Counted from the stretch's first letter, positions 16,159-61,088 are shown. The stretch: 64,000 nt of DNA from a virus (IMGVR_UViG_3300018475_000011:24000-87999); one strand, 5' to 3'. Notes: generated from the sequence alone by a model not told the origin. Made by a program: numbers and translations.

Positions 16159-16187
16159 TTGACAAATGCGTTACAATGTGTTATTAT
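16159..16187 (+). promoter_or_regulatory. CGTTAC-class promoter 1
   Basis: TTGACA aatgCGTTACaatgtgt TATTAT. Confidence 0.8.
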
Positions 16188-16240
16188 ATAATTACAGAGA
16201 ACAACAAACCAAATATACAATAACAAAGGAGATAACGCTT

Positions 16241-43022: not shown

Positions 43023-43061
43023 AAATTTGTTCTCCTTTATATTATAATATAGTATGTTACA

Positions 43062-44819
43062 TTAGCGGTCGCCATAATCCGCTTTTGGCTTTTCTTTGGT
43101 CTGTGTCTGCTCTTTGTTCAATTCAGCAACATGAGCATCATATATTCGGCTAGGGCGTACTTTACACTCTACGCTCTTTCCCCTAAAATTGCTTATTTCT
43201 AATTCGCCCAAAAAAGCAATTTCTCCCTTGGCGTTTGTAGGATAATTTGCATCATTAAAGCCCCAATCAACCGCCTTAAACTTTGTTACGCCTTTAAGCT
43301 GAATATCCTTCCAATTAGGATTATTCGCTTTTCTAGCATCTTTTTTCTTTTCATTTTCTACGCCAATAATTTCAACGGGGGGTATTTTAAGACCCGTTCC
43401 TAACGGTTCTAAATGCTCCATTTTGCTTAATGTTTCATCTGCTGAAATTTCCTTGGGGGACATTTTTAGCAAAACAAGCTCTTCTTTTCTTTTAAGATTA
43501 GATTTGTTTTCGTTAATAGCTTCAACGAAAAGGTCAAAATCGTCGGCAGATATTCCCGAAATACCAACAGCGTCGTGATGCCCGCCGTACTTGATATTCA
43601 TACCGCCCACCGTATTATCTAAAAATAGCTTTAATGATTCATTTCCTACCGCATTACGACTACTTCCCGTAAATGTTTGTGTTTCTTCTTGGAGTGCCAC
43701 GCATATTACAGCCTTATCGGTTGCATCTGTCAATTTACTTGCAACCAAACCCGCAAGAGCCGTTGGAGTATTATCGGGCAAACGATATACAAACACATTG
43801 CCTTCCGAATGACGTTCTCTTAAAGCGGTTTCGTAGAATGTTTCATCTTGCAATGTCGCTACAACCGCCTTACGCTCCGAATTAAGCGTACTTAGCTTGG
43901 AAAGCTCAATATATGCGTTAGCGTTGTTTGGATTGGCTGTAAGAGCGTTATACATTCTCATAGCACCATTTTCTCCCAATATGGCACTCATTCGGGAAGA
44001 ACTATTAAGGAACGCACCTACATTAAAACCGATTTGCTTTGCCGTTACATCTTGTTCATTAATACCGCAAATACTCAATGTGTGACCTATGATAAAATCG
44101 AAATTCTCTTCGTGAGCATTATTGATAATATCAAGCCCCTTCTTAATTATTTCACGGTTACGGCTATTCATATCCATAACATTAACCATATCGCAAATAG
44201 TACCGATGCAAGCCATAGCACCCAATGTATTATTTAATACTTCTTCGGATAAAGATTCGATGCCTTGCTTTTCACACTCTCCACGCATACATTCAAACAC
44301 ACGATATGCCAAACCCGTTGCACAATATTGAGCATTAAGGCTATCGTCCGTGTGGAAGCAATGGGGATTTAGTAATAACGGGTCTTTTGAGAAGGCTTCT
44401 CTATCCGCTTCATTATTGATAAGGTGGTGGTCTATAATAATTGTGTCTTTGCCAAAAGTATTGCGGATATAATCTAATTCATTACTTCCCATATCAAGAA
44501 CGATGTATTTTGCATCTTCTTCCGCTTCAATGTATTTAGGAACACCATACGACATACGACGGTCGTTGCAATGTACTTCTAAATCAATATTGGGATTAAC
44601 CTTTCGCAAGGCTTTGTCAAGGATATATGCTGAACATATACCGTCTGCATCATAGTCTGTTAGAATACGAACCTTATTGTCGTTCTTCGCCAATGATAAA
44701 ACATGGCTTGAAGTAGAGAGAATACTAATACTAGCTTCGGGAGCTTCTTGCATTTTACTCTCTTTATCTTCGACATCGGCGATGATTTCATCAAGCGTTA
44801 CATATTTAATCTCTGCCAT
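43062..44819 (-). CDS. recJ: RecJ-like DHH/DHHA1 ssDNA exonuclease
   Basis: TDYDADG, VLDMG, IIDHH, GTICDMV, GSSR, GGHHDAVG; start at 44819 after AAGGAG. Confidence 0.85.
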   Translation of the reverse strand: MAEIKYVTLDEIIADVEDKESKMQEAPEASISILSTSSHVLSLAKNDNKVRILTDYDADGICSAYILDKALRKVNPNIDLEVHCNDRRMSYGVPKYIEAEEDAKYIVLDMGSNELDYIRNTFGKDTIIIDHHLINNEADREAFSKDPLLLNPHCFHTDDSLNAQYCATGLAYRVFECMRGECEKQGIESLSEEVLNNTLGAMACIGTICDMVNVMDMNSRNREIIKKGLDIINNAHEENFDFIIGHTLSICGINEQDVTAKQIGFNVGAFLNSSSRMSAILGENGAMRMYNALTANPNNANAYIELSKLSTLNSERKAVVATLQDETFYETALRERHSEGNVFVYRLPDNTPTALAGLVASKLTDATDKAVICVALQEETQTFTGSSRNAVGNESLKLFLDNTVGGMNIKYGGHHDAVGISGISADDFDLFVEAINENKSNLKRKEELVLLKMSPKEISADETLSKMEHLEPLGTGLKIPPVEIIGVENEKKKDARKANNPNWKDIQLKGVTKFKAVDWGFNDANYPTNAKGEIAFLGELEISNFRGKSVECKVRPSRIYDAHVAELNKEQTQTKEKPKADYGDR

Positions 44820-46335
44820 GATTTTCCTTCTCCTTCTTAGACTTTTCTGTGGTCTTATCTTCCTTTTTGTTGTTACGTTCATTGATAGCTTTGTCTACCA
44901 AATCAACGCTTTCTTCAAATAGTTTTACGCTGATTTTATAATCGGCTTGGTCTGCTCTATTGTTTCGCACGATAATTTTTCCCTTGTCTGCAACAAGACT
45001 AACATCTTTCTCGTTATCGTATTTATAGGCATATTGAGAAATGCCACCTTTTTCATCGAAATTAAAATAGGTTTTGTTGCCGTCGGGAGATACCGCACAA
45101 ATATATGTGCTGTCGTCGTGAATTAGCTTAATATCCCAACCCGACGGGGCATTAGAATCCATGACACGCATAATCGCATCAATGCGTTTGATATGCTCGT
45201 CGTTTGCTTTTTTGAAACCACTAACGCCTTGTTCTTTCAGCATGGTCTTTACATCATCGTTAGTTAAGCCACAAACAGATAAATAGCGATTGGTAATATC
45301 TGATTTGATGATATCCCTAACGATGTATTGGCGGTCAAAATCTAATTCGCTATGGATTTTGCCGTCTTTACCGTTAGTCCAAATGCCGACGGTTTTTTTA
45401 GCTCCCGTACCTTTGGGATTTTTGGGGTCTGAATTGTCATATCCCGTATAAAGAGATGCAACGATTTTATTGTTACTCATTTTGAACTCAATCAAAGAGT
45501 TTTGTCGTTCATGGATAACACAATAGGTTTTATCATCTCTTAATACACCACTAATACCGTTTGCATCGGTTGTAATATTATATAAATCATTGACTTTTCC
45601 GATAAGCTCTTCCTTCTGTTTTTTTGTTTCCATAAGGTTTTGAATTTTATCTTGCGTTTCCTTATCATATTTTCCGTAATTTTCTAAGTCGGGGAAATGC
45701 TCCCGCAAAATTTCAAGCCTTATTGCATCAGCAACGGAATAAGATTCATCAAGTTTTACTTCACTTAATTTTAGGCGGGATATGCTGACATCTTCTTCGA
45801 CGGGAACAAACCCGAATTGAACAAACCCGCCCGCCGATTGAGATTTAACCATATAATAATTATCGTCACTCTTAATATACAATTCTCCGTCTGCGTCGCT
45901 TTTGTATAGTGTAGCACTATCTGTATCAATTCCATAGCTTTTAATGGCTCTGTCATAGCTTGAAAAAACCTTTTCTCCTTCGCCCTTGGCTTGACTTTGA
46001 GCAAGGTCGTTTAATTCCTTTTCGATTTTGCCGATTTCCTTTTCGGCATCTTCAATAGAGATACTACCGATTTTACTTGCCAATTCCGATGTGGTATGAA
46101 TTAAATTGTCAAGGATTACCGCCGTTGTTTCGCTATTGTTTTCTACATCATCAAGACTTTTCGCTATACGCTCTAATGCTTCATAACAAGGTCTGTGACG
46201 CAATGCCTTAATAATATCCATAAGCATTTCATATAGAGTTTTCTTTTTTTCTTGATTTTCAGCTTCTATTCCCGCATTTTCGGGGTTGGTGTTTTCGGTA
46301 TTAGTATTATTAGTATTTTCTGTATTCTGTGCCAT
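44806..46335 (-). CDS. hypothetical protein, basic tail ..ENHGRD
   Basis: 509 aa; N-terminal coiled coil. Confidence 0.75.
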   Translation of the reverse strand: MAQNTENTNNTNTENTNPENAGIEAENQEKKKTLYEMLMDIIKALRHRPCYEALERIAKSLDDVENNSETTAVILDNLIHTTSELASKIGSISIEDAEKEIGKIEKELNDLAQSQAKGEGEKVFSSYDRAIKSYGIDTDSATLYKSDADGELYIKSDDNYYMVKSQSAGGFVQFGFVPVEEDVSISRLKLSEVKLDESYSVADAIRLEILREHFPDLENYGKYDKETQDKIQNLMETKKQKEELIGKVNDLYNITTDANGISGVLRDDKTYCVIHERQNSLIEFKMSNNKIVASLYTGYDNSDPKNPKGTGAKKTVGIWTNGKDGKIHSELDFDRQYIVRDIIKSDITNRYLSVCGLTNDDVKTMLKEQGVSGFKKANDEHIKRIDAIMRVMDSNAPSGWDIKLIHDDSTYICAVSPDGNKTYFNFDEKGGISQYAYKYDNEKDVSLVADKGKIIVRNNRADQADYKISVKLFEESVDLVDKAINERNNKKEDKTTEKSKKEKENHGRD

Positions 46336-46337
46336 GA

Positions 46338-47441
46338 TTATCTTCCTTTCGATGAATTTCTAAATTTACCCCAACCTTTTGTATTGTCCTTGGTGGAATC
46401 TTCAATGTTTGGCTCTACATTCTTAATAAACCATGAAGGTTTATATATTTGTCCGTCCTTGCCACAAAATTCAAGCCATTGCCTTATATTTTCTGTTCCA
46501 TACATCATTGCTCCGTTATAGATAAGGAGCGGTTTGTCATCAACGGTATCACGATTACATACATAAATCTTGCCATTTGGTTCTGCTTTGGTAGAAAAAC
46601 AAACAACGCTTCCTTCATAATGGATATTGGAAACATTTTCTCCAAATCCATTTTGCAACTCTCTTTTAATGGCGGTGTATATGCCATAAATGTTTTTCTT
46701 ATTATTGTCATTTATAGCATATAGGGCTTTTGTTGCGTTATTACTTAAATAATCTTTGCTCTCGATGCCTTCTTGATAACAAAAATTATAAACATCTTTA
46801 TAAATTTTGTCATAATCATAAGCCCCTTCTTTCTTTTCAAACAATAACGCCTTTCCTAATAATTCATCGGGATTGGTTAATTCCAAATGGGCGACGTTGT
46901 AAAAGCGATATCCACTCTTAATAAAGGGCTTTGTTTTATCTTTTGCGATTTCCTTATAGTTTGCATAATCATCGTCAAGCATAAATTCATGTCTATCGGT
47001 TAATCTTTTGCTGAAAACATCATAAGGAATGAATTTTTTAGGGGTTACGCTAATGTATTCTCCGTCGTGCAAATTACGCTCAAATTCTATCGGTTGTAAG
47101 TGCAAATAGTAATATTCGGGTTTTCCCTTTCCTTCAACAGCAAAAATGCTTTTTAACATACTTGCTTCATAATCCGATGCGGGTTTATACGAAGGATTAT
47201 TTGCATTTTTGAGTACCGTATCATCAGTTATGAGCATTTTTTGTAAAACAAACAAAACATCTGTCGAATCAAATGGTTGGATTCCAACAATACATTGGCT
47301 TTTGTCGGCTTTGATTGTTTTGCTAGTTTTTTCAAGAAAGTCAAACATCATATCGGCTTTATCCTTTATTGATGCTTGCTTAAATGGAATTTCGCCCTTG
47401 TTAATCTCAACAACATTTCCGTTGCTATCAACCACTTTCAT
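46338..47441 (-). CDS. hypothetical protein, tail ..NSSKGR
   Basis: 367 aa coupled ORF. Confidence 0.75.
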   Translation of the reverse strand: MKVVDSNGNVVEINKGEIPFKQASIKDKADMMFDFLEKTSKTIKADKSQCIVGIQPFDSTDVLFVLQKMLITDDTVLKNANNPSYKPASDYEASMLKSIFAVEGKGKPEYYYLHLQPIEFERNLHDGEYISVTPKKFIPYDVFSKRLTDRHEFMLDDDYANYKEIAKDKTKPFIKSGYRFYNVAHLELTNPDELLGKALLFEKKEGAYDYDKIYKDVYNFCYQEGIESKDYLSNNATKALYAINDNNKKNIYGIYTAIKRELQNGFGENVSNIHYEGSVVCFSTKAEPNGKIYVCNRDTVDDKPLLIYNGAMMYGTENIRQWLEFCGKDGQIYKPSWFIKNVEPNIEDSTKDNTKGWGKFRNSSKGR

Positions 47442-47444
47442 ACT

Positions 47445-48383
47445 TTATCTCTCCCACATATCTTTTTTCTTAGGCTTGGTTTGGTCTGTATTGCTTCTAT
47501 TGTTACGACTAGAACTATATTCTATAATTCGTGACTTTAATTGCTCAACCGTTTCCTTTTCCTTAATTGCAACCGTTAAATCCTTGCTCTCTTGTTCCAA
47601 CATAGACATAACGCAAAGCAAATCAAATTGGCTTTGTGATAATTTGATTGGATTTTCGGGCGTGTTATATTTGCGATATGCCGTTTGTAATTTGAACGCT
47701 TCTTCAAATTTCTTTTTCGGCATAGAAGAAATTATGTCGTCTATGTTTTGACGATATTGCCCTATCAAATAACCATAATTATTAATAGTTTCATCGCATT
47801 TATTTATCAATATTTCCTTAACAAATTCTTTGTCTGTTTTCCACATTTCCGCAAGGCTATGTATTTGGAGATATTTGTCGCCAATCGAATACTCATACAC
47901 GTTATCGTTTTCGTCAACGGCTTTAATATCATATAATAAGTTGCGGGTGGTAGTTGTCATTGCCCCGCTTAATCCTATGAGCTTACATTCTTGCGGGGTA
48001 AGCGGAAATACATCGGCATTTCTGCCTTGCTTTAAGTCGTTTCTTGCTTTTTGGACTTCCCTTAAATTGCTATACATATCCAATGGCAAATTATAATCAT
48101 CAATCAGCATTTCGCACGCATTAGGCAAGGTGGTATTCATGTTTTCCATTACTACTGATATCGGTGTGAAGGATTTTCCACACGCAAAACAAGTACAAGT
48201 ATTTGTATGCGGATATATATGAGCCGACGGTTTTTTGTCTTGGTGGCTTGGCGAAGGACAGCTTATGTTGCCCTTTTTGGAAGTATCAATATTTGCATAC
48301 CGCCTTAAAACATCATCAATGGGTACGCTTTTATTGATAGCATCTAAATCGTATCGCAATGGAATATAATGGTCTTTTTTCAT
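47445..48383 (-). CDS. CHC2 (primase-type) zinc-finger protein without TOPRIM
   Basis: VPIDDVL..CPSPSHQDKKPS..CTCFACG. Confidence 0.75.
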   Translation of the reverse strand: MKKDHYIPLRYDLDAINKSVPIDDVLRRYANIDTSKKGNISCPSPSHQDKKPSAHIYPHTNTCTCFACGKSFTPISVVMENMNTTLPNACEMLIDDYNLPLDMYSNLREVQKARNDLKQGRNADVFPLTPQECKLIGLSGAMTTTTRNLLYDIKAVDENDNVYEYSIGDKYLQIHSLAEMWKTDKEFVKEILINKCDETINNYGYLIGQYRQNIDDIISSMPKKKFEEAFKLQTAYRKYNTPENPIKLSQSQFDLLCVMSMLEQESKDLTVAIKEKETVEQLKSRIIEYSSSRNNRSNTDQTKPKKKDMWER

Positions 48384-48387
48384 GGTC

Positions 48388-50697
48388 TTATTCTTTTACC
48401 TTTTGTTGTTTTGATTCGATTTCCTTTTGAGCATTTGACAAATAAGAATTTGCAATGTGCATTGTGTTACGCACACTCGAACTACTGTCTTTGGCAATGC
48501 CGTCAATCATAGCTTTTATCTGTTCGATTTGGTTTATCTTTGAACCGTTAGAAAGTGAAAGCTCATTACTTTCTGCGGTCAAGACGGAAAGCGTAGATAC
48601 AAGAGCTTTCGACAATTCTTCCGTTTGGCGTTTTAATAAATCATTTTGTTCTCTTAAAGCATTGGTGTTTTCGGTCAAAGCTATTGTTTGCTTTGTGAGA
48701 ACTGCAATTAACGACGAATAATCAACATTAGAATCGGCTACTTTATTTTCCTTGCTTTCAACAGCTTCGCTAATATGCTTAATAGGTGCTTCTCCCACTT
48801 GCTTAACATTTCCGTCGGTTACAACAATGGGTACGGTATCATTATGCTTATTAGAATAAAGCTCTCTTTCTCTTTCATTCAAGCTCCTTGTGCCATATTC
48901 GCTTCCGTTCATAATAGCTTGAACTTCGATGTCGGCAAGCAATTCGGCTTGGGTGGGAATTTCAAAATATGTATCATCGTCAAGAGCGGGAGCAACATCG
49001 GCGGGAGCAACATCGGCATTGTTTAATACATCTCCGCTTACGATGCCCGCCACAAAATCATTTAATGAAACATTTTCTTGCGTCGGGGACACTTCTAACG
49101 ATTTAGCTGAATGTTCCTTTTCATCATCTTTTTGAGCGGATATTTCTATGCCATGAATACGCTCTCTTGCATCTTGATAAATAGAATCAACAATAGATGC
49201 CATGGCAAAACATTTGTCGATAGTATGTTTATTAAATACTTCAAGACCGTTATTTTCAGCAATACACTCTAAGCTGAATTTGAAATTAGAACCGTCAATA
49301 GAATCAAGGTCAATTACCCTATTAGGTAAATCATTGCTCATTCGTTCATAGGTATACTCTTTGACAACTTGTGCGAAGTCTATATAAGGTGCGTTACAAA
49401 CGCCCAAATTGCCGATTTTAGACATGGAATTTTGAGTAAAGGATAAATCACTATTCCTTGCTTTTCCGTTGCTAATTAAGGCGTATTCGTCCGTAGAATA
49501 CTGTTTGAAAAAGCGGTTAATCATATCGACAGCTTCATCGGGACTTAAAACACCACCTTCCGATGATGATATTCCTTTCATATAATCATCAAGATTGATT
49601 CCCGTATAGGTAAAGGCATCGAAAGAACCCTTTTCTTTGTTTTGAATTGCTTTATTAATGGAATTGCGGTCGGCGTTGATATCCATAGACATAACGCAAA
49701 CGCCTTCCAAACTTTCTTTGCCTAATTCATAGACCGTAGCCGTAAGCTGAATGGGGTAATCATTAGCGGTAAATCCCGTTGTTGCGGATTGCATTATGAT
49801 AATACCCTTTTTATCGCTCTTACCTTCTAAAACATCATATAATTCATTTAAGTCGCACGGATAATCTCTGTCTATAACATCGTGAGATATAACATTACTA
49901 CTCAAAAGGGTTGTGAATTTACCTTCAAAATCGCTTTCAAGGTATTTTTCCTTTCCTTTTCGCACCATGCTTTCATACTGTTCTTTATTATTTTCATTGT
50001 AGAAAACAACAGTATCATTATATAACCACTTGTTTTCACGCCCGTAATGAATCATAAAATTAGCCATTGATTCGGTACGCTTATCCGTCCCCATGATTTT
50101 TTCGGCAGATGCGATTTCTTTGTGATTTACATAGTGATTGAGGACATCTAATGTAGCGGTTCGTGATTCTATGCCCTTTTTATTGAAATACTCCTTTGTC
50201 AAAGTGGTTTGGTCGATAATTCTTTCATCTTCGTCAAGAGCTTTGAGCATATCAGCACAACCGATTTTATCCATATAGGAAATACAAAACTTAGTTCCGT
50301 TTGCAATGTAAACAGTATCTTTATCAAAACCTTCCATAAAGCGTGTAAATTTAGCCTTAAATTCATCGACACTTAAAACATTGTCGCCATTTATATATGC
50401 GGTTGCGTCAATACCGCCGTTTTGGAATACATCGTATTTATCCTTATTGGCAATGGCGTGTTGTAATCCTTCGTCGGTGCATTTTACAAGCTCGTCAAAT
50501 ACAAGAGCTTGTTTATATGCTCCTACTTCTTTGTCGTATTCATATTCTTTTACACATACTCTTGTGGGCGAATGTGCATCACAAGCAGAATTATCAATAC
50601 CCGTTGTGCTAACTACCATAAATACAAAATTGTTACGCTCATTAATTGCGTTTTCCATTTCCATTAAATAGGGGTATGCCTTAAACGAACCTTTCAT
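48388..50697 (-). CDS. protein with two degenerate DEDD/DnaQ-like exonuclease domains and a C-terminal coiled coil
   Basis: FMVVSTTG..IANGTKFC..IIDQTTL and IMQSATTG..ISNG..YIDFAQV..SLECIA. Confidence 0.55.
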   Translation of the reverse strand: MKGSFKAYPYLMEMENAINERNNFVFMVVSTTGIDNSACDAHSPTRVCVKEYEYDKEVGAYKQALVFDELVKCTDEGLQHAIANKDKYDVFQNGGIDATAYINGDNVLSVDEFKAKFTRFMEGFDKDTVYIANGTKFCISYMDKIGCADMLKALDEDERIIDQTTLTKEYFNKKGIESRTATLDVLNHYVNHKEIASAEKIMGTDKRTESMANFMIHYGRENKWLYNDTVVFYNENNKEQYESMVRKGKEKYLESDFEGKFTTLLSSNVISHDVIDRDYPCDLNELYDVLEGKSDKKGIIIMQSATTGFTANDYPIQLTATVYELGKESLEGVCVMSMDINADRNSINKAIQNKEKGSFDAFTYTGINLDDYMKGISSSEGGVLSPDEAVDMINRFFKQYSTDEYALISNGKARNSDLSFTQNSMSKIGNLGVCNAPYIDFAQVVKEYTYERMSNDLPNRVIDLDSIDGSNFKFSLECIAENNGLEVFNKHTIDKCFAMASIVDSIYQDARERIHGIEISAQKDDEKEHSAKSLEVSPTQENVSLNDFVAGIVSGDVLNNADVAPADVAPALDDDTYFEIPTQAELLADIEVQAIMNGSEYGTRSLNERERELYSNKHNDTVPIVVTDGNVKQVGEAPIKHISEAVESKENKVADSNVDYSSLIAVLTKQTIALTENTNALREQNDLLKRQTEELSKALVSTLSVLTAESNELSLSNGSKINQIEQIKAMIDGIAKDSSSSVRNTMHIANSYLSNAQKEIESKQQKVKE

Positions 50698-50703
50698 ATT
50701 ATC

Positions 50704-51078
50704 CTACCTTTCTACTGTGTTTTTAACTTTTCCTTTTGCTTTTTCGTCAACACCGATTGCTTCACGATTAAAGTGCCAATCATCAGTTAAATTTATAAAT
50801 CTTTCGGGGATATCCCACAAAGCATCTTCTATAATCCCCATACGACTTGACGCTGATTTGTTTTTGGGTTCAAGGTGGAATACTTTTTCGCCCATTCCCT
50901 TTTCGCCAATCTTTTTATAATAAAAATCTTCTTTTTCCTTTTCGCCGAATTTGACGGTTAATGTTCCTTCATCATTGGAATAGCTTAAATATTTGACATC
51001 ATTATTGTCCTTGTAAAAAACTGTCAAATCGGGATTTCTTGATTTTTCATTTTGGAAAATATTATATAATTTGTTCAT
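50704..51078 (-). CDS. hypothetical protein, tail ..KNTVER
   Basis: AAGGAG SD. Confidence 0.7.
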   Translation of the reverse strand: MNKLYNIFQNEKSRNPDLTVFYKDNNDVKYLSYSNDEGTLTVKFGEKEKEDFYYKKIGEKGMGEKVFHLEPKNKSASSRMGIIEDALWDIPERFINLTDDWHFNREAIGVDEKAKGKVKNTVER

Positions 51079-51091
51079 CTCTATACTCCTT

Positions 51092-51134
51092 GTAAATAAA
51101 ATAAGGGCAATCCCTTGTAGAAGGAACGCCCTTT
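51092..51134 (-). terminator. terminator-like hairpin immediately upstream of the 51078 SD
   Basis: AAGGGCGTTCCTT-ctac-AAGGGATTGCCCTT ATTTTATTT. Confidence 0.6.
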
Positions 51135-51264
51135 ATATAGCATATAATAATATGAATAAAAATCATATCAAATAAGACAAATACTATATAACGGACTATC
51201 CTTCAAAGCAATACACGCATATTGCCCGATAACAGAAGGGAATTACCGTATCTGATTACCTTAT

Positions 51265-51293
51265 ATTATAACAAAATTAAACAAAATAGTCAA
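51265..51293 (-). promoter_or_regulatory. SigA-type promoter
   Basis: TTGACT-17-TATAAT with extended TG. Confidence 0.75.
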
Positions 51294-51296
51294 CAT

Positions 51297-52859
51297 TTAT
51301 CGGTCAATGTCAACATCTGCTTTATATGACCCTTTCCCCTTGGGAATTGGTTTTCCCGCATTGCCAAAAGCAATGTCTTTTCCCCCAAAAGCAAGGCTTT
51401 GGGTTATGTACTTGAAGTTTTCATCTTCCGTCAATACCTTTCGGGCATATTCGCTATCAATTCGATTATTAAAAATGATAGGATTCGATTGGGGAGAAAC
51501 GGTTTCCTTTTCTCTTTTATAGAATATATCCATTCGATTCCCAAATTCATCAAACGTGATAGATACTTGCCCCCCATTGCAAAACAAGTTAATTGAATTA
51601 TTAAACTTATTATAAGCTACAATAACATCATCGGGTACGGCATTTGCGTATTCATCAACCCGCTTTTCCATTTTCAAAGCAAGGGCATCGGAATACTCGG
51701 TTGTATAACAAAATGTTTTGTTTGGCACTTCTGTTATGCCAATATCATCTAAGCTAAATTCTTTGTTGCCTAAATAAGAATCTACACCGTTGTAGTCGTA
51801 CTCGACCTTTTTGGCACGATTTAATTCAAGCCCAACCGTTGCAATTAAGTCATTAAATGAGTTTTTTGCAAGAATATTTAGATAATCGCTATTATCAATA
51901 TAAGCAAAGCCATTTGACGCATCTCTTATATCATATACTTGCGATACTTTACCCGTGTTGTCTTTGTAATAGGCATTAATTAAGCCCATTTCATAATCGT
52001 AATTAAGAATCATTCGGCTATCATGGTTGTCCGAAAATATCATGGCTTGATTTAGGGCGGGCAAAAATGTAACATTTTCATTTGCATAATAATTAGCAAC
52101 GGTCTTAATTCGCTCCGATATATCTGTTGATTTTATTATGCTTTCATTTTTGGCTATTCTCTCTTTGACCCTTTCCGCTTCCTTGTTGAATAATTCATCT
52201 ACAAGGCTAATCGCCTTTGGGATATCTCCAATACCAAATACCGCCATTCCAACGGTTTCAAAATTACTTTTTAATTCTTTGATAGAATACGGGTTTTTAT
52301 CGTCTTTAATAAGGGCTTTGTATTTATCATTATTGCGTACCATTTCTTCAACCGTAAAATAAGATTTGGGTTCATTGGTTATGCAATCAATAGATATTAC
52401 GGCGGGAAAACCTTTTTGATTTCGCATTACATTATTCAATTCGTAATTGGGATTAAACAATATAATATCATTGGTTTTCTCATTTTTCAGCAAACGGTAT
52501 TCGTCGGCATTAGGAGATTTTGCGATGCTTTCCATGATTAACTTAAATTCAGCTCTCTTTCTTTCGATATTAGAGAGATTTTCAGTAAGCGAATCTATGG
52601 CTTTTTGGGCGTTATCCTTGTTCTCACTTAACAACGCAAGCTCCAACGCATAATCAGCTCTTGCCAACACGGGAATTATCTCACGAAGATTGTTGTCGTT
52701 ATACTCACTTGGATTAGCATATTCGTCTTTTTTAGAATCAACAAAATCAGCTACTTCTTCGGCATTGATTTCTTCTTCTATTGGTTCACTTTCTATATTT
52801 CGTAATCGTTCCGATAATTTATCACATAAATCGGCTACTTTTCTTCTGAAATAAGACAT
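51297..52859 (-). CDS. hypothetical protein, tail ..DVDIDR
   Basis: 520 aa; GGGAG SD. Confidence 0.75.
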   Translation of the reverse strand: MSYFRRKVADLCDKLSERLRNIESEPIEEEINAEEVADFVDSKKDEYANPSEYNDNNLREIIPVLARADYALELALLSENKDNAQKAIDSLTENLSNIERKRAEFKLIMESIAKSPNADEYRLLKNEKTNDIILFNPNYELNNVMRNQKGFPAVISIDCITNEPKSYFTVEEMVRNNDKYKALIKDDKNPYSIKELKSNFETVGMAVFGIGDIPKAISLVDELFNKEAERVKERIAKNESIIKSTDISERIKTVANYYANENVTFLPALNQAMIFSDNHDSRMILNYDYEMGLINAYYKDNTGKVSQVYDIRDASNGFAYIDNSDYLNILAKNSFNDLIATVGLELNRAKKVEYDYNGVDSYLGNKEFSLDDIGITEVPNKTFCYTTEYSDALALKMEKRVDEYANAVPDDVIVAYNKFNNSINLFCNGGQVSITFDEFGNRMDIFYKREKETVSPQSNPIIFNNRIDSEYARKVLTEDENFKYITQSLAFGGKDIAFGNAGKPIPKGKGSYKADVDIDR

Positions 52860-52876
52860 TTTGCATCTCCCTTCTA

Positions 52877-54313
52877 CTATCTGTCTATATCACTCATTTT
52901 CTTTTTGGGCTTGGAAGTGTTCTGTTTGTCTTTTCCCATTTCTTCCTTTTCAAAGAATTTATCAAACTCTTTGTTGAACTCCTTAGAAAATGCGTCAGCT
53001 CGGCTAAATGCGGTTTCAAAAATCGTGTTTTTGCCGATACGGAACGCATCGGTTTGGATATTGTTCATAGTGTGGCTTATTTCTAATGCTAATTTTTCTT
53101 CACATTCTATTCCTATATGCTTACATACCATGTAGGCTGACATTGCAACTTCTAACTTGTGCATATCGCTATCGGACGGTATTCGGCTTTTAATACCCGT
53201 TATGATAGCGGGGTTTTCGGAAAACAATTTATCGGCGTAACCATGAACCGCTTGATATAATCTTTCTTGCTCGGATATATTTTTGTCGTCGGGAACAACA
53301 AAAGGGTAAGAAACGATATAACCGCCTTCATTAGTATTGAAGTTTATTTGATTCATTGCGGTTGAAATTTCATTGAAATTCTCTGCATTATCTTTAAGTG
53401 GCTTGTTTAACTTCAATAAATGTTCGATTTCTTCTCCTTTTTCATTTAAGGCGAATGTCTGTTTTATGTCGAATACGGGAGTATCAACAAATCCCGATAA
53501 TACTTGAACTTCTCCCTTATGAGCTATTTGGTCTAAGAGCTTATCTTTTTCATCATCAGTTAAGTGGTTACGCTCAACATATTTATTTACTGAATCTTCA
53601 TTAGAAAGAATTGTAAAGACGGGAGCAAATATATGAATAGCACTCTCTCCCTTACTTACTTGCCTATCAAGAGCTTTCCATGCTTTATAACCCTTAACCG
53701 CTTCGGCATCGGGGGCTTGGGCGTAAACAAGACCAATGTTATTGCAACTGTATCGCTCAAAATTATCCTTTATATCTAAAAACTTTTGATAGTCTGCTCC
53801 TTCAATAGTTGCTTTAACAGCATCACTAGCTTTTTGTGACAGAACTTCGGTAGACTTTGAAACATCTACATTGCCTTGCGATATTACGGGGATTCCGTAT
53901 TTATCTTCAATAGCCCCCTTTATTGTACCGTCGTAAAAATCCATTCCGCAAGCAATATCAAACGGTATATGAACGACAATACTGTTTGAAATATCATATA
54001 AATTACTCATGTATTTATTGGCGGTTTCTTTTATATGTTGCTCAAAGCGGGCGGGGTCGTATTCTTCGATATAATCGCCAATGTATTCGGAATAATCCAT
54101 GATATCTCCGTTAGCAAGCATTTCTTCACGCTCTGCCAATTCTTCTTGTTGATTAGCAAGGTACATTTCCTTAACATCATCTTTTGCCATAGATAAGGCT
54201 TGGGTGTAATTAATATCTGCGGGAAAATCAAATTTTACGCCCTTGCAAGTAAAAGGCACTCCTTCTTCTCTAAATTTCTTTATTTGATTATCTGTATAAC
54301 CGCTAAAATCCAT
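52877..54313 (-). CDS. ArdC-like N-terminal ssDNA-binding domain protein with degenerate metallopeptidase region
   Basis: YSCNNIGLVYAQ..KGYKAWK..RQVSKGESAIHIFAP..VFDIKQT; AVHGYAD in place of HExxH; start 54313 after AAGGAG. Confidence 0.75.
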   Translation of the reverse strand: MDFSGYTDNQIKKFREEGVPFTCKGVKFDFPADINYTQALSMAKDDVKEMYLANQQEELAEREEMLANGDIMDYSEYIGDYIEEYDPARFEQHIKETANKYMSNLYDISNSIVVHIPFDIACGMDFYDGTIKGAIEDKYGIPVISQGNVDVSKSTEVLSQKASDAVKATIEGADYQKFLDIKDNFERYSCNNIGLVYAQAPDAEAVKGYKAWKALDRQVSKGESAIHIFAPVFTILSNEDSVNKYVERNHLTDDEKDKLLDQIAHKGEVQVLSGFVDTPVFDIKQTFALNEKGEEIEHLLKLNKPLKDNAENFNEISTAMNQINFNTNEGGYIVSYPFVVPDDKNISEQERLYQAVHGYADKLFSENPAIITGIKSRIPSDSDMHKLEVAMSAYMVCKHIGIECEEKLALEISHTMNNIQTDAFRIGKNTIFETAFSRADAFSKEFNKEFDKFFEKEEMGKDKQNTSKPKKKMSDIDR

Positions 54314-54326
54314 AACAAACTCCTTC

Positions 54327-56021
54327 CTAATCTCTTTCGATATGCTTTTTTGATTTTTCTTTTTCATCGGGCAATTTAGAAGCAACAAGATATCCCGACA
54401 TTATCTTTTCCGCATTACGCATTATTGATTTCCATTCATCTTCCGACTTTGCAAAAACTTTTTTCATTTCTCTGCACATAAAACGGGAATCATCTCTTGT
54501 GAAAGCTCCAATTTCAACGGGCATATATTCACATATTGTATCATTGTGATTAACTACGGAAAAAGTAATGCTGTCACGTTTGATATTGTAATCCATATAT
54601 ATTTTTTTAGCGTCAATATGGCACATATCTAAATTATCATATAATACACGCCCCCATGATTCTTTGCGTAGGTCGAATTTGGAAAGGTCAAGCTCTGCTC
54701 TAACACCTTCGGGGATTCTAATAAGTTCGTCCATGCCCTTTGACATAGTATTGATTAAACTCTTCCTATCAACACTAAACGTCATGTCTTTTGTGTGGGC
54801 GGTCATTTCAAGTAAATATTTGATAGTACATTGGCTTTGGTCGTAAATAACGTATTCATCATTTTTTAGTCCCGTTCTGTGTTTGTCGGCATATACCGAT
54901 AAACAACCACTCGGCAAACTGTTCTTATTGAAGGAGCGGGACAATGATGAAACGGGTTTATACGTTTCTCCTAAAGCAACGGAATAAACCGCCATGTACC
55001 CACTATCACGTTGTCCGTCGTTCCATACCGCACCTTTTACGTCCATATAATTGAGTGATTTACGACTATCGGGAGCAAAGTAAAGTCCGTTGCCAAACAT
55101 CTTTCCCGTAATTTTTGCATCGGGATTAAGCGAAAGACCGCTCTTCATTATAGACAACCAATTCTCAACCTTGCTACCATGGTAAAATAACCGACAATCT
55201 CTATGGGATAAATTATGTGCTTTTTTGAAATCTTCATAAGCAGAGCGTGTTTTTTCATTCTCAACCGCAAATCCTTTAATATATCTGCTTTCAACTTCTC
55301 TACCGTCGTAATCTCTTCCTAAATGAGATGTGATTTCATCTTCTTCTTTATAAGTAACGGGACGAACAGACAAACCGTATGCTTCCAATAATGTTTTATC
55401 TTGGTCTACTGATGCCGTAATCTGCGGAGCAATTTGACCCTTGACATTATCAATCATGTCTTGTTCTCTTTTTATAATTTTTGTAAAGTCAAGCGATGAT
55501 TTAGCGGTATAATCGTCCACATTTTTCATTTTACGGGGAATGTCGGTAAATATTTCCACTAATTTTTCGTTGAAACGCCACAATGCCACATTAGGCATAT
55601 TATTAACCATGTCAATCAATTCATTAAGGTCGTTTTGAGCTTCATCAACCATTTTCTGTGTAATATCAGATGATTGAATCGTATAATTTGCCTTCATAAA
55701 TTCTCTTGCTGATTTGGCAAGCATCTCAATAAGAGCATTTACTTCTTCGTGTTCTATTTTTTTGTAATCCAAATCAGTATTGTGATTCGTAACAACTTGG
55801 CTTGAATGTAATGCGGTTACGTCGTTATACCCCTTGTTTTCCTTTGAGCGTAATAATTCATAAAAATCTTTTTCTCCCCTTGAGTAATGGTGGAACGATG
55901 CCCTACCGCCAACTCTTCCGAAATTAACATCAATACTGTTATCATCATTTTGGGTAATTTCATAGTATTTATTACTATTGGCAAGCGGGTCAACATATAC
56001 TAAATACGCATAATTCTTCAT
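54327..56021 (-). CDS. poly(ADP-ribose) polymerase-like protein (WGR + helical regulatory + H-Y-E catalytic domain)
   Basis: NKYY..FGRVG..K.NKGY; LFYHGS..GKMFGNGLYFA..KSLNY..NDEYVIYD. Confidence 0.9.
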   Translation of the reverse strand: MKNYAYLVYVDPLANSNKYYEITQNDDNSIDVNFGRVGGRASFHHYSRGEKDFYELLRSKENKGYNDVTALHSSQVVTNHNTDLDYKKIEHEEVNALIEMLAKSAREFMKANYTIQSSDITQKMVDEAQNDLNELIDMVNNMPNVALWRFNEKLVEIFTDIPRKMKNVDDYTAKSSLDFTKIIKREQDMIDNVKGQIAPQITASVDQDKTLLEAYGLSVRPVTYKEEDEITSHLGRDYDGREVESRYIKGFAVENEKTRSAYEDFKKAHNLSHRDCRLFYHGSKVENWLSIMKSGLSLNPDAKITGKMFGNGLYFAPDSRKSLNYMDVKGAVWNDGQRDSGYMAVYSVALGETYKPVSSLSRSFNKNSLPSGCLSVYADKHRTGLKNDEYVIYDQSQCTIKYLLEMTAHTKDMTFSVDRKSLINTMSKGMDELIRIPEGVRAELDLSKFDLRKESWGRVLYDNLDMCHIDAKKIYMDYNIKRDSITFSVVNHNDTICEYMPVEIGAFTRDDSRFMCREMKKVFAKSEDEWKSIMRNAEKIMSGYLVASKLPDEKEKSKKHIERD

Positions 56022-56031
56022 AACAATCTCC

Positions 56032-56313
56032 CTAGTCTACTAAGTCGCATGGAACAAGGATTATATCTTCTCCGTTGTATATCTTTGCGTACATGATGCC
56101 GTCAACAATCATTTCTTCCAACGTATAAATAACTCTGTCGTATTCATCAGTTTCTTTGCGGATAAAACGAATAAAGTCCAATTCGTTGCCATTGTCGCTT
56201 TGAAAAAACGCTCTCCAATCTATATGCTTTGCAAGCGGGTGGCGGGCGTAGGTTTTTTGAATTTCTAATCTTTTTTCTGCGGATAGTGAATTGATATATT
56301 CATAATTAGTCAT
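56032..56313 (-). CDS. hypothetical protein
   Basis: GGGG SD. Confidence 0.65.
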   Translation of the reverse strand: MTNYEYINSLSAEKRLEIQKTYARHPLAKHIDWRAFFQSDNGNELDFIRFIRKETDEYDRVIYTLEEMIVDGIMYAKIYNGEDIILVPCDLVD

Positions 56314-56318
56314 GTTGG

Positions 56319-57200
56319 TTATCCCCTTTCTATATTGTTCTTGTTGTGACGCTCGTTTATTGTTTTAGCATTGCCTTTATCTATTATTTCTTTGACAGCA
56401 TCGCTTGTAACAACAAAAGAACGTCCTTCGGATTCGGCTTTTAGAGCTTGCTCATATATGTTTTGGGCTTTCTCCATGTATTTTTTGTGCCATAATGGAG
56501 ATTGCTCTTTCATGCAATCAAGCATTATTTTCTCTATCATTTCATTGCTTATATTGTAAAGCGGATTTTCTATAACTGTTTTGTCATACATATTGGCATT
56601 AGCGGTTAATCTCTTTAAGTCGTCCGAACTATCGTAATACCATTTTTCGTTTTCGGAAACGTGGGTATACGCTAAATATTTATGGGTGTTTGTATGCGTT
56701 GGAATATCGGAAATACCGTTTACAATTAAAACGGGCATATTTTCTAAAACATAAGGAAGAATAGTTGGATATGAATTATCTAATATTTTATTAAATTCTT
56801 CCATATAATTTTCAAAATCTATTTCGGGCTTATATCCAATATCATCAAGCCATACCTTCAAGGTATCAGCTTCAATAATTAAATCCTTCATTGTGTCGGG
56901 ATATCGGGCGTTATATCCAAATCCGCTACAACACTCTATTCCGTAATCCGAAACAGCTTGCATCACAATAATTTCAGCATCTTTACTGTCATACGGATTA
57001 AGGTCGTGATAATTAAATTTTGTGGCATCTACCGAACCCATATATGCGTATAACGTACTTCCTTCTTTGTCTACATGAAAAATATCATATATTGTGGCTA
57101 AAAATGGAGATTCGGAACACTCTTTATCATCAAATGCTTTTCGCATTAGAGTACCGCCATTCTCGGCAATATTATTATTGCCGTAGTTTACCCATTCCAT
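56319..57200 (-). CDS. hypothetical protein, tail ..NNIERG
   Basis: 293 aa coupled ORF. Confidence 0.7.
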   Translation of the reverse strand: MEWVNYGNNNIAENGGTLMRKAFDDKECSESPFLATIYDIFHVDKEGSTLYAYMGSVDATKFNYHDLNPYDSKDAEIIVMQAVSDYGIECCSGFGYNARYPDTMKDLIIEADTLKVWLDDIGYKPEIDFENYMEEFNKILDNSYPTILPYVLENMPVLIVNGISDIPTHTNTHKYLAYTHVSENEKWYYDSSDDLKRLTANANMYDKTVIENPLYNISNEMIEKIMLDCMKEQSPLWHKKYMEKAQNIYEQALKAESEGRSFVVTSDAVKEIIDKGNAKTINERHNKNNIERG

Positions 57201-57892
57201 TATCTTTCAACTTCCTTCCGCTTTGGCTCTTTTGTCTTGCTTTTTTCTTTATCTAAAGCTCCTAATTCTTTGGCAACGGTTAAAATGTTCTTTATTGTGT
57301 TATAACCTATGTTATCGCTTGAAAATCCCGCTCCGTCGCCTACTCTTTGAATATTGTTTCGCATTGCAAATTCCCACGCAAAGCTATCTATAACATCATG
57401 CCTTGCATCTCCGTAATTATCTTTGAAGCGATTTATAATGCCAATGGCATTTTGAGTAATAAGATTAGAATATTGAACATCATTCAAATCATAACATTCT
57501 TGCTGATATTTTAAGGTGTAATCCTTAATACATTTACATTCGGACAAGGCAGATAATACCTTTTCACAATCTTCATCTTTTAGATATCCCGTAAATTCCA
57601 TTGGGTGTAAATACAAATACGTTTTATCGAATTTATAACCTTTAGATAATTCAGCACAACTACCCGAATTATCATTTGGTTCGTTTACGGTAAATCCGTA
57701 GGAACGCAATTTATTATGTACTTCCGTGTGGAAAGCATTGGCTTGTTGTCTATTCCACCCCGTTCCCATTTGATAATCGCCGTGAATACCTATATATACT
57801 CTTTTATATTCAGACGGTTGAAGGATAACATCGGGTCTTATTTCCATATTCCAATCAAACGGTTCTGTTCCTTTTACACTATATACGCTCAT
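57200..57892 (-). CDS. hypothetical protein, tail ..RKEVER
   Basis: 230 aa coupled ORF. Confidence 0.7.
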   Translation of the reverse strand: MSVYSVKGTEPFDWNMEIRPDVILQPSEYKRVYIGIHGDYQMGTGWNRQQANAFHTEVHNKLRSYGFTVNEPNDNSGSCAELSKGYKFDKTYLYLHPMEFTGYLKDEDCEKVLSALSECKCIKDYTLKYQQECYDLNDVQYSNLITQNAIGIINRFKDNYGDARHDVIDSFAWEFAMRNNIQRVGDGAGFSSDNIGYNTIKNILTVAKELGALDKEKSKTKEPKRKEVER

Positions 57893-58697
57893 TTCTATTA
57901 TTTTCCTTTCTTATGTTCTTTGTGGCAATAGAAACACACTCTTCTACTTTCTTAATAGATACTTCCATGGTTTTATCCCAATTTTCTCTTTGCATTTCGG
58001 CTGAATATCCTTCAATACAAAACATTTTTGAATCTACGGAATTAATCGAATTGATAGCTTTTATAGGTGTTCCTTTCCACTTTTCAAGGTTTACCTTATA
58101 ATCATCAATCAGCACGGATATTTCCGCATTTCCTTTTATGAAGTTATTTTTATCTGCTCCTAACGGGGAAAAAAATATGTTTTTTTTGTCTATAAAAGGA
58201 CAGTTATTATCTAGCCATTCCCATTTATCCCTTATCGTATCTTTTTCAGCAGAACTAATAACGCATACATCATATCCTTTTACACATAGATTTCTCGCAA
58301 GCTCTATCATAAATTCGTGTGGCTCTATATCTTTGAAATAATGGTAATGCGGGTCAAGCACTTGGTCGGGATATGCAAACCCCCTTGTGTTTTGATACCA
58401 ATATCCCAATGTTCCGTCAATGTCAAAGTATATCGACGGTTTATTTGAGCAAGGAACATTAGTCGTAGCCAAATTAGCCCATTGTTCCTTGTCGTACTTC
58501 AAATATGCCTTTAATTCGGGAGCGTCCTTACTAGACCATACCACTTCATCATCTATATTTCTCTTTATCTCTGCAAGAGCGACGAATGTTCCGTACTTAT
58601 CTGCATACAAATCCGTTTCATTTAATGCTGATTGAAGATTATTATGTGGTTTCTGCATTTTGTCGCCGTTTTGATTTGTGTATTCTACATAATACAT
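57879..58697 (-). CDS. HAD-superfamily 5'(3')-nucleotidase-like protein with N-terminal extension
   Basis: IYFDIDGTL..VISSA..KWEWL..LIDDYKVNL. Confidence 0.75.
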   Translation of the reverse strand: MYYVEYTNQNGDKMQKPHNNLQSALNETDLYADKYGTFVALAEIKRNIDDEVVWSSKDAPELKAYLKYDKEQWANLATTNVPCSNKPSIYFDIDGTLGYWYQNTRGFAYPDQVLDPHYHYFKDIEPHEFMIELARNLCVKGYDVCVISSAEKDTIRDKWEWLDNNCPFIDKKNIFFSPLGADKNNFIKGNAEISVLIDDYKVNLEKWKGTPIKAINSINSVDSKMFCIEGYSAEMQRENWDKTMEVSIKKVEECVSIATKNIRKENNRNERI

Positions 58698-58729
58698 AAA
58701 TAATCACACTCCTTTGTATGAATATAAGG

Positions 58730-59027
58730 CTTAAAAGTATATCAAGTTAGAGTATTAAGCCTTTCACACTCAAATTTGCCTTTCCATGTGATTTTTGCGA
58801 TTTATTATAACACATGGATATTTGCGTTTATTTATTAAATTACATTATAATTTTGCGTTTTATACATATTAAAATATACATTATAATACATACTAAAATG
58901 CAAATTAAATTTGCGTTTTATCGCCATGCAACGCATGGCACACTATTATAAAAAGATATCTCACGAAATAATAATGCAAAAAGAGCTTTGTTTTTATCTT
59001 AATCATATAACTTGATATACTTTTAAG
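58730..59027. repeat. perfect 20-bp inverted repeat flanking 258 bp
   Basis: CTTAAAAGTATATCAAGTTA (58730-58749) and TAACTTGATATACTTTTAAG (59008-59027). Confidence 0.9.
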
Positions 59028-59033
59028 ACATAC

Positions 59034-59987
59034 TTATCTTTCATAATCACGCCTTGACTTGCTCTTTGATGTAGTTTTGGTCTGATTTCCTTGCTTTTCT
59101 GTATTTTCTTCTGCTTCTTTTTCTTCGTAGGTTTTTACGCCCCGCTCTTTTTCAAGGCTTCCTATATCATCAAACATTTCGTATTGAATAAGATTTCCTA
59201 CTTTTGTTTTATCTATTGTTGTTTCTTTTGGAGCTTCATTATGAACAATCTCATTATTGTTCTTAACCATAGAATTAAATTGTCGTTCCATATCGGGATT
59301 ATCTCTTAATGCTTCCATGGTTGCATTGGTAGCCATAACATATCCGTCATTGCTTTCTGTTATTTCAAGGCTTAATGGCTTGGTTTCCACTATATCAATT
59401 TTAATAAGTTCATTTTCATCTTTAGCCTTAAAATATGCGTCAATCGTCTGTTCTCGAATGGAAAGAGATGAATTTATATCAATTCCTACATCTTCCATTA
59501 ATGCAGATACAGCATTAAGAGATTCCTTTACATCATTTATTGATATGCCGTCACGCATTGCATTGTGGAGAGCTTCATTTAATGTTTTGCTTTCAAGCAT
59601 GGTTTCTATGGATTGCAAAACGATATCATCTCTAAAATCACGGCTCATTATACTTAAATTAGCATTAAATCCTTCTGCTAAAACATATCGCATCGTTTTA
59701 TCATCTAAATTATTAGATAGTATAGCCAAATTGTCACAATAAGCATCTTTGCCTATTAACGATTCAATTTCGTCGCCCACCCTATTGGTTGATGCGGTAA
59801 TAAATTCCAAAGCATTGCCAACAGAATTAAAAAATGATTTAGTTTCCATGTAATCACGCATGGATTCAAAACAATCTCTTTCTTCTACTTCTTTTTCTTG
59901 AATAGAACGGTTGATTTCAATTTCTCTTTCCTTGTATCTTTCGATTGCTTCTTGGATTTCTATTTCGCTTTCCAATATTTTATTCAT
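59034..59987 (-). CDS. hypothetical protein, tail ..RRDYER
   Basis: start 59987 after AAGGAG, coupled to upstream stop. Confidence 0.7.
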   Translation of the reverse strand: MNKILESEIEIQEAIERYKEREIEINRSIQEKEVEERDCFESMRDYMETKSFFNSVGNALEFITASTNRVGDEIESLIGKDAYCDNLAILSNNLDDKTMRYVLAEGFNANLSIMSRDFRDDIVLQSIETMLESKTLNEALHNAMRDGISINDVKESLNAVSALMEDVGIDINSSLSIREQTIDAYFKAKDENELIKIDIVETKPLSLEITESNDGYVMATNATMEALRDNPDMERQFNSMVKNNNEIVHNEAPKETTIDKTKVGNLIQYEMFDDIGSLEKERGVKTYEEKEAEENTEKQGNQTKTTSKSKSRRDYER

Positions 59988-60897
59988 AAGACATCTCCTT
60001 TTTGTTTTTCTTATTGTGAGCATTTAATAAAGCAATACATTCCGCATATACGCCGTCGGTTATAAATTTGCCATATTCTTTTGATAATTTGGCACTAAAA
60101 CGGGTATCTATTGATACGGTCGAATTTCTTTCTCGGCTTGTCAAATCGACGGTGCATATATCCGCAGATAAAGATTCGTTAGTATTTGTTCTTTTCAAAT
60201 TCATTTCAATAGATATTTCATCTACGATAAAACTATCATATAAAACGATATTTCCATTTTTGAATCCTACATTATAATCCGTACTTTCCATTAAAAATTT
60301 TAATACTTCCAATTTGAAATCATCAGCATTTTCTATATATCCAAAAGCTGATATGTCGCCACCTAAAGATGCTATTTTTAAGGGATTAGTTTTTGAGCTT
60401 TTCATAATTACAGATAATAAATCGTCAGCTCCTTTTAATATTTGTGGCGGGTTATATTTATCTGCAAAGCTCAACGGAAATAATTTGCAAAAATCCATAA
60501 AGCATTTTTGACATTCTTCAATTATATATTTGGGACATTTTCCTTCAACCAAATAAGAAGTGGGGCGTTCAAATCCTATCTTTTTTTCCAACTCCATATT
60601 TAAGGAACTATAAGAACAATAGAAATGAGTGTCTATTTCCAATATGCTACCCTTGCTTTTACTAAGGGAAATATCGTGAACTCCACCCAACTTTATATCA
60701 GACATTACCATTCTTTGTAAATGTGGTATCATTTTATTTTCAATATGAGCTTCTATTTCAGCTATCAAGGCACTTGTATTAGCCTTTTCCAATACATTTC
60801 CTTCAAAAAATTCATTAGCCATACAAGCCTTATAATATTTTTCAAGGTATTCCTTTATGATTTTAACTGAAATGTTTTTATGTCTGTCGTTATACAT
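59980..60897 (-). CDS. hypothetical protein
   Basis: 305 aa; AAAGGA SD. Confidence 0.7.
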   Translation of the reverse strand: MYNDRHKNISVKIIKEYLEKYYKACMANEFFEGNVLEKANTSALIAEIEAHIENKMIPHLQRMVMSDIKLGGVHDISLSKSKGSILEIDTHFYCSYSSLNMELEKKIGFERPTSYLVEGKCPKYIIEECQKCFMDFCKLFPLSFADKYNPPQILKGADDLLSVIMKSSKTNPLKIASLGGDISAFGYIENADDFKLEVLKFLMESTDYNVGFKNGNIVLYDSFIVDEISIEMNLKRTNTNESLSADICTVDLTSRERNSTVSIDTRFSAKLSKEYGKFITDGVYAECIALLNAHNKKNKKEMSYE

Positions 60898-61059: not shown

Positions 61060-61088
61060 AGTATAGCAATTATTATATAAAATGTCAA
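61060..61088 (-). promoter_or_regulatory. SigA-type promoter
   Basis: TTGACA-17-TATACT with extended TG. Confidence 0.75.

Follow-up and report, generated by a model that had tools for sequence, protein, structure and literature searches.

A four-domain PARP encoded in the accessory arrays of large conjugative plasmids from gut Clostridia

Poly(ADP-ribose) polymerases (PARPs) of bacteria have been known for more than ten years and two of them are active in vitro; their target and their physiological role are both listed as "unknown" (PMC8120803). What such an enzyme might do for the DNA that carries it is the question raised by gene P0001, which lies on a 64,000-nucleotide stretch of DNA catalogued as viral (IMGVR_UViG_3300018475_000011:24000-87999, hereafter the window, from whose first letter positions are counted) and whose product had been read, in a preliminary description, as a eukaryote-like, DNA-break-sensing PARP on a mobile element. 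Here we place the protein in the Clostridia branch of the bacterial PARPs, within a monophyletic four-domain subfamily whose genes sit in the accessory array of large conjugative plasmids from Clostridia of the gut. The clade gives the question of role a defined setting, with a fixed place in the array beside an anti-restriction-type protein, and it offers three separable plasmid-specific additions to the enzyme: a fourth domain, a tail that follows it, and a small partner protein.

Domain architecture and relatives of the plasmid PARP

The open reading frame (ORF) is uninterrupted, begins with ATG and is preceded, 6 nt upstream, by the Shine-Dalgarno (SD) sequence GGGAG. As judged from its sequence and structural model, it encodes an intact ADP-ribosyltransferase of the PARP1/2/3 type, composed of a WGR domain, a helical domain (HD) and an ADP-ribosyltransferase (ART) domain that bears an H-Y-E triad and is predicted to be catalytic (Table 1). 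The Pfam WGR match covers residues 5–68 (29.8 bits, above the curated threshold of 22), and the motif itself reads F34-G35-R36, with G35 invariant and R36 present in at least 90% of 40 full-length relatives. The helical domain is present despite the lack of a Pfam PARP_reg match in the 564-residue protein, since an alignment-based AlphaFold2 model (predicted local distance difference test (pLDDT) 83.8, predicted template-modelling score (pTM) 0.78) superposes in Foldseek over ~470 columns on the DNA-break-bound WGR-HD-ART chains of PARP1 and PARP2 (E ~1e-20). Garcia-Saura et al. describe a Clostridiales PARP clade whose helical domain is likewise missed by PARP_reg (PMC5966428).

The catalytic domain is recognized by Pfam PF00644 at residues 230–406 (87 bits, E 1.5e-24), and both phmmer and a 40-sequence profile, run against the sequences of the PDB, place PARP1 at the top, followed by PARP2, PARP3 and the tankyrases. 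The segments LFYHGS, GNGLYFA and NDEYVIYD align to H862, Y896 and E988 of PARP1, while RKSLNY aligns with the nicotinamide-pocket segment SKSANY, so that S322 and Y325 match S904 and Y907. H281, Y314 and E389, together with much of the NAD+ pocket, are invariant in the 40 full-length relatives, which are 41–86% identical to the window protein. The layout and the triad motifs (YHGS, GLYFA and NDEY) named in the preliminary description are thus borne out, the former by Pfam for the two outer domains and by Foldseek and the AlphaFold2 model for the middle one; its two claims about the C terminus, an extra domain of ~150 residues and a basic tail ending in ERD, also stand, the domain folding confidently on its own and the last 11 residues being disordered and rich in Lys.

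Modelled alone, the C-terminal domain reaches a pLDDT of 90.9, with its elements in the order alpha-beta-beta-alpha-beta-beta-beta-alpha-alpha-beta. In the 40-relative alignment, conservation within it is strongest in a charged helix, TxDDxxFLxREMKKxFAxSExEW, and the conserved residues comprise T508, D510, D511, F514, R517, E518, K520, K521, F523, E527 and W530, plus R419; the helix and R419 look like an interaction surface. Pfam reports nothing in the last 155 residues of the PARP, and Pfam, NCBIfam, PHROGs and PADLOC hold no family that matches the domain. Its fold gave no meaningful match in Foldseek searches of the PDB (best E 0.17) and BFVD (best E 0.08) or in a wide VIA-align comparison (best Z 3.7, to AcrIF13); sliding-clamp-like rows recur weakly in these searches and are not significant, and the ESM Atlas returns Bacillota proteins at template-modelling scores of ~0.5. 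Across 1.84 billion representatives, phmmer found the domain solely in this PARP family or its fragments. The idea that it is a module in common with neighbouring proteins was rejected, as its profile matches only the PARP among all ORFs of the plasmid.

Long forms of ~565 residues account for more than 100 clusters at 90% identity from gut metagenomes in a large protein collection, so that the earlier remark that bacterial PARPs are rare does not suit this clade; short forms of ~404 residues, which end at the ART domain, occur in the same collection. In a tree of the enzyme core, the 37 sampled long forms make up one clade (support of 99 in the Shimodaira-Hasegawa-like approximate likelihood ratio test, SH-aLRT) and the C-terminal domain needs a single gain. 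Short forms are the nearest sisters of the long-form clade, and they come from Clostridia, Lachnospiraceae among them.

Set against known systems the enzyme core is ordinary, because WGR-PARPs have been described before from bacteria, plasmids and phages (PMC5966428, PMC8120803, PMC7824862); what is new is the four-domain form, the fixed array setting, the gene for the small partner and a tail that co-varies by plasmid, and the literature searched describes none of the four. The WGR-HD-ART chains of human PARP1, PARP2 and PARP3 (PDB 4dqy, 7s6h and 6x0l) have the same fold, domain order, triad and pocket Ser and Tyr at ~20% identity, whereas the window PARP lacks their zinc fingers, BRCT and N-terminal region and has the extra C-terminal domain. 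Reviews ascribe no more than three domains, WGR, PARP_reg and PARP, to bacterial PARPs (PMC8120803), a maximum that does not hold here, where the chain runs on past the ART domain with the ~150-residue domain and the tail. The Clostridiales PARPs of "clade 1.2" (PMC5966428), for example that of Butyrivibrio proteoclasticus pCY360, resemble the window protein in their WGR and PARP domains, in a helical domain unseen by PARP_reg, in their Firmicute hosts and in their carriage on plasmids; at 26–40% core identity, however, they stop at the ART domain, whereas the window clade adds the fourth domain, the tail and the gene for the small partner. The phage PARPs (Cellulophaga phi4:1, Klebsiella and Xanthomonas jumbo phages; PHROG 23333) likewise place WGR-HD-ART on a mobile genome and are 25–32% identical to the window PARP over residues 1–407, but they are only ~380–420 residues long, are without the C-terminal domain or tail and lie in replication or nucleotide-metabolism contexts. 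The two bacterial PARPs with demonstrated activity, likened here by their published description, belong to the same family and architecture class: that of Herpetosiphon aurantiacus, whose activity is DNA-dependent (PMC8120803), and that of Clostridioides difficile CD160, for which poly(ADP-ribose) (PAR) synthesis has been shown (PMC5966428). Both are chromosomal, with a canonical PARP_reg and a poly(ADP-ribose) glycohydrolase (PARG) in the genome, unlike the window plasmid, which has no eraser.

The conjugative plasmid, its gene array and the shared tails

The record to which the window belongs is an 87,999-bp circle (the window being genome positions 24000–87999) that IMG/VR labels a complete virus with direct terminal repeats. 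A phage origin was rejected: the "terminal repeat" is a 35-bp end overlap of the circular assembly, and the genes are of plasmid and conjugation type. They encode a Rep3-like initiator, Topo III, a VirD4-type coupling protein and ParA, and the gene for a Mob_Pre (MOBV) relaxase is followed directly by that for a VirB4-like ATPase; Phage_capsid and Terminase_6N, the only two phage families searched for, have no match on the record. By this gene content the 88-kb record is a conjugative plasmid, in keeping with the earlier view that the PARP is carried by a mobile element. No near-identical DNA was found in PLSDB. The stretch was detected in DNA metagenome runs from animal faeces and gut, with no RNA run listed, and its relatives belong to Clostridia of the gut (Lachnospiraceae, Oscillospiraceae, Blautia and Clostridium porci).

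In all nine genomic contexts the long-form PARP lies within a long array of genes on one strand. Recurring members of these arrays are YdjM, NT5C-like, CHC2 primase-like and RecJ-like genes and, often, one for a GGDEF protein; a homologue of the ArdC-N-like protein is encoded zero to three genes downstream of the PARP in eight of the nine. In the window, the ArdC-N-like gene has its real start at the ATG at 54313, as read from the sequence, and most of the neighbouring proteins matched no family in Pfam, NCBIfam, PHROGs or PADLOC. A near-consensus promoter precedes the array and probably drives an operon of ~10 kb that contains the PARP, the next strong promoter on the minus strand in the promoter scan being at 51293.

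The gene directly upstream of the PARP encodes a small acidic protein whose homologues hold the same place in four related loci (L004, L008, L023 and L024, in our numbering) at 31–48% identity, the PARPs of these loci being just 43–56% identical to that of the window. Its profile matches five of the six long-form loci and none of the 13 short-form loci (Fisher p = 5e-4), and 6 of 16 clusters of the small protein lie on the same contig as a long-form PARP cluster. The protein has no known family in Pfam, NCBIfam, PHROGs or PADLOC, and the Atlas gave no usable match. It is the best candidate for a ligand of the fourth domain, because it is confined to loci with that domain; most likely it is a binding partner of the PARP, be it a chaperone or an inhibitor. 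One of the four loci, L008 (contig CAKQCV010000001.1, 196 kb), which has both the long-form PARP and the small partner, was binned into a Prevotella metagenome-assembled genome (MAG); it is probably a mis-binned plasmid, because all other relatives point to Clostridia.

The tail is not peculiar to the PARP. The PARP and 12 other proteins, 13 of the 16 encoded in the array, have a C terminus rich in K/R that closes with [DE]-R-(x), against 13 of the 82 other plasmid genes (p = 7e-7), and among 106 long-form relatives 72 have at least four K/R in their last 14 residues. In four array genes (56319-57200, 50704-51078, 47445-48383 and 46338-47441) the motif overlaps the SD sequence of the next gene. 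The tail of the PARP is no such overlap, because the next gene's SD sequence comes after the PARP stop codon, and an explanation of the tails as mere SD overlap was rejected: it fails for the PARP and five other proteins, the Arg codons vary (AGA, CGA, CGC), and it cannot account for the acidic tails of L024. There, nearly all array proteins, the PARP included, end in acidic tails (..DD, ..DLD, ..GIE), whereas in the arrays of the window plasmid, L004, L005 and L023 the tails are basic and end in ..[DE]R(D). Because the switch from basic to acidic is array-wide, the flavour of the tail goes with the plasmid and not with the protein family, and the co-variation suggests a shared signal that may be read by plasmid-specific machinery. 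In VirB/D4 systems the type IV coupling protein recognizes basic signals at the C terminus, and Dot/Icm substrates include some with acidic E-block signals; the tail possibly serves delivery into the recipient by a type IV secretion system (T4SS). The shared, co-varying tails lend indirect support, short of proof, to the remark in the preliminary description that the PARP may act in the recipient. If the tails are delivery signals, Gram-positive conjugation would export an entire set of enzymes, and the conflict of plasmids with host defences would come to involve PARP-type signalling at DNA ends, which bears on the origin of eukaryotic PARPs.

Table 1 Features of the PARP gene and its surroundings (nucleotide positions in the window)
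Feature	Residues	Position	Strand	Description and basis
PARP gene P0001	564 aa	54327..56021	-	Stop codon within span; ORF list and translation
WGR domain	~1-75	55797..56021	-	Pfam PF05406, E 6.5e-7; model shows beta-sheet plus helix
Helical (HD-like regulatory) domain	~85-229	55335..55769	-	Model helices 92-197 and Foldseek alignments
ADP-ribosyltransferase domain	230-407	54801..55334	-	H281, Y314, E389; nicotinamide-pocket S322 and Y325
Family-specific C-terminal domain	~408-553	54363..54800	-	Alpha/beta; model, phmmer, tree
PARP tail	554-564	54330..54362	-	Disordered (pLDDT below 50), Lys-rich, ends I-E-R-D
Small acidic protein, candidate partner	93 aa	56032..56313	-	pI 4.7; directly upstream of PARP, 10 nt
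ArdC-N-like protein	478 aa	52877..54313	-	Directly downstream of PARP; Pfam ArdcN E 1.8e-6; PHROG anti-restriction family
One-strand array, 16 genes		42081..60897	-	NT5C-like, PARP, ArdC-N-like, CHC2 primase-like, RecJ-like; Pfam, tails, synteny
Near-consensus promoter TTGACA-17-TATACT, with TG		61060..61088	-	Scan, 11/12 matches; consensus match only

Proposed role and competing explanations

We tentatively favour, at a probability of roughly 45%, a reading drawn from the company the gene keeps, in which the PARP would be a DNA-end-activated ADP-ribosyltransferase that serves plasmid establishment or counter-defence, in preference to housekeeping, and is possibly delivered by the T4SS. That it senses DNA breaks can reasonably be inferred from the conserved WGR domain, the helical domain of the autoinhibitory type and the Herpetosiphon precedent (PMC8120803). 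The WGR domain would bind a DNA end or nick, be it on incoming or newly replicated plasmid DNA or on plasmid DNA cut by host nucleases, and this binding would release the autoinhibitory helical domain, which would unfold, as in PARP1-3 (PMC6486540) and the Herpetosiphon enzyme (PMC8120803). Consuming NAD+, the enzyme would then attach ADP-ribose to itself, to proteins close by or to the DNA end, and the modification would protect or repair the plasmid during establishment, alongside the ArdC-N-like, primase-like and RecJ-like neighbours. Only the plasmid form has the C-terminal domain and the tail, and their most likely task is to link the enzyme to the machinery of the plasmid, with the tail as a putative recognition signal common to the array and possibly one for T4SS delivery into the recipient.

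Several observations weigh against this proposal. The C-terminal domain is no common delivery domain, because no other plasmid protein shares its sequence. At locus L005 a profile search found a long-form PARP without the small protein, and at L024 the small protein itself bears the tail. Macro, PARG_cat_microb, PARG_cat_C and ADP_ribosyl_GH (ARH) have no match anywhere on the 88-kb plasmid, which extends to the whole plasmid and to ARH the earlier statement that no PARG or macrodomain was recognized nearby; at the related loci, no ADP-ribose eraser is listed within 10 kb of the PARP. Finally, N387, an invariant Asn two residues before the catalytic Glu, stands at the position of PARP1 Tyr986, which presumably bears on polymer synthesis versus mono-ADP-ribosylation, and the loop preceding that Glu is ~27 residues shorter than in PARP1 in the profile alignment; because of this Asn and the shorter loop, mono- and poly-ADP-ribosylation are both possible.

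A more specific version, which we consider doubtful, holds that a Gram-positive T4SS injects the PARP and other proteins with the plasmid DNA, that the tail is the export signal, that the small protein is a VirE1-like chaperone or inhibitor in the donor, and that the PARP, activated by DNA ends, ADP-ribosylates recipient nucleases or the ends of the plasmid DNA so that the plasmid can establish itself. VirE1-VirE2 of Agrobacterium is a chaperone-substrate precedent, the likeness being that of a small acidic protein encoded just upstream of a DNA-binding, possibly delivered protein. ArdC-N, MuF_C and ART-PolyVal are parts of the polyvalent proteins proposed to accompany the DNA of mobile elements into a new host (Iyer et al. 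2017, PMC5512222). These proteins, like the window array and L004, bring ArdC-N, MuF_C, ART-PolyVal and primase together; here, however, the domains are separate genes and not one giant protein, delivery is only proposed, and PARP is absent from the polyvalent-domain list of that paper (0 occurrences). Should injection be true, a physiological role would for the first time be assigned to a bacterial PARP, and an effector signal to a Firmicute conjugation system.

The plasmid also encodes much that would suit an enzyme with no part in transfer, one that marks nicks and breaks from replication and recombination for the repair proteins of a resident plasmid. Besides the RecJ-like protein and Topo III, the plus strand carries genes for an ERF single-strand-annealing protein, DUF932, a RecD-like helicase and a PIF1-like helicase (11180-12046, 16166-17206, 2015-3781 and 12694-14172, respectively); short-form relatives are encoded in phage replication and nucleotide modules; the Cellulophaga phage PARP adjoins a DNA ligase; and the PARPs of gut jumbo phages have been read as repair sensors (PMC11662467). 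We nevertheless hold such a maintenance role to be unlikely, as it leaves unexplained the C-terminal domain found only in the plasmid form, the shared tail and the dedicated small partner, and the neighbour that is conserved, an ArdC-N protein, is of the anti-restriction type.

The small acidic gene bears on a further possibility, in which a toxic PARP that consumes NAD+ or modifies DNA or protein is neutralised by the small protein, for addiction or for abortive defence against phages or rival elements. The gene lies directly upstream of the enzyme gene and is tightly coupled to it, it co-occurs only with the long form, no PAR eraser was found on the plasmid, and toxins of the ART family, such as DarT, exist (PMC9967889). 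The pair sits, however, in the middle of the ~10-kb operon, where the promoter scan gives it no separate strong promoter, its adjacency holds in five of six loci and not always, L005 having the PARP alone, PADLOC gives no match, and an autoinhibited WGR-HD enzyme should need no antidote, which together make a toxin-antidote pair quite improbable. A takeover of the host in the manner of phage T4 Alt/Mod, with the PARP modifying host proteins such as RNA polymerase, translation factors or defence nucleases independently of breaks and the WGR domain serving only as a DNA tether, is very unlikely: many phages and plasmids have ARTs that act on host factors (PMC5512222, PMC7824862, PMC9503650) and the L004 array has a second ART-type gene (ART-PolyVal), but the autoinhibitory HD is conserved in full, with the packing seen in PARP1/2, which points to allosteric control through a WGR-bound ligand.

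Further genes in related arrays and short-form loci

Genes for GGDEF (diguanylate-cyclase-type) proteins lie a few genes downstream of the PARP at L005:13789-15618, L023:14860-17310 and L024:13899-15674; none was recognized in the window array. On the 86-kb plasmid contig of L004, genes with MuF_C and ART-PolyVal (L004:2951-6415) are found just upstream of the pair formed by the small protein and the PARP, and the MuF_C-bearing protein of that locus has a weak homologue (30% identity) in the window, encoded at 59034-60023. On the window plasmid itself, the plus-strand gene at 32578-33312, a tentative candidate for a second ART (of the R-S-E type), has no Pfam match at E <= 0.001.

Some short forms are encoded in contexts unrelated to the array, and the short-form loci in genomes have almost nothing in common with the window plasmid beyond the PARP. 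Among the short forms, a 404-residue PARP is encoded in a phage-like replication module (L007:349-4004), in which the gene for the alpha subunit of DNA polymerase III is split around a LAGLIDADG-type gene and adjoins genes for Thy1, NrdD and dUTPase. Two short-form paralogues occur on one contig in Clostridium porci, ~13 kb apart (L011/L016, NZ_VUMD01000017.1), and in a Lachnospiraceae MAG, 1.5 kb apart (L010:9956-14134). On megaplasmid BTB_502p of B. thuringiensis Bt407 (L028:4620-7041), a WGR-PARP gene adjoins an opposite-strand pair encoding a nucleotidyltransferase and a SAVED protein, an arrangement that resembles a cyclic-oligonucleotide-based antiphage signalling system (CBASS).

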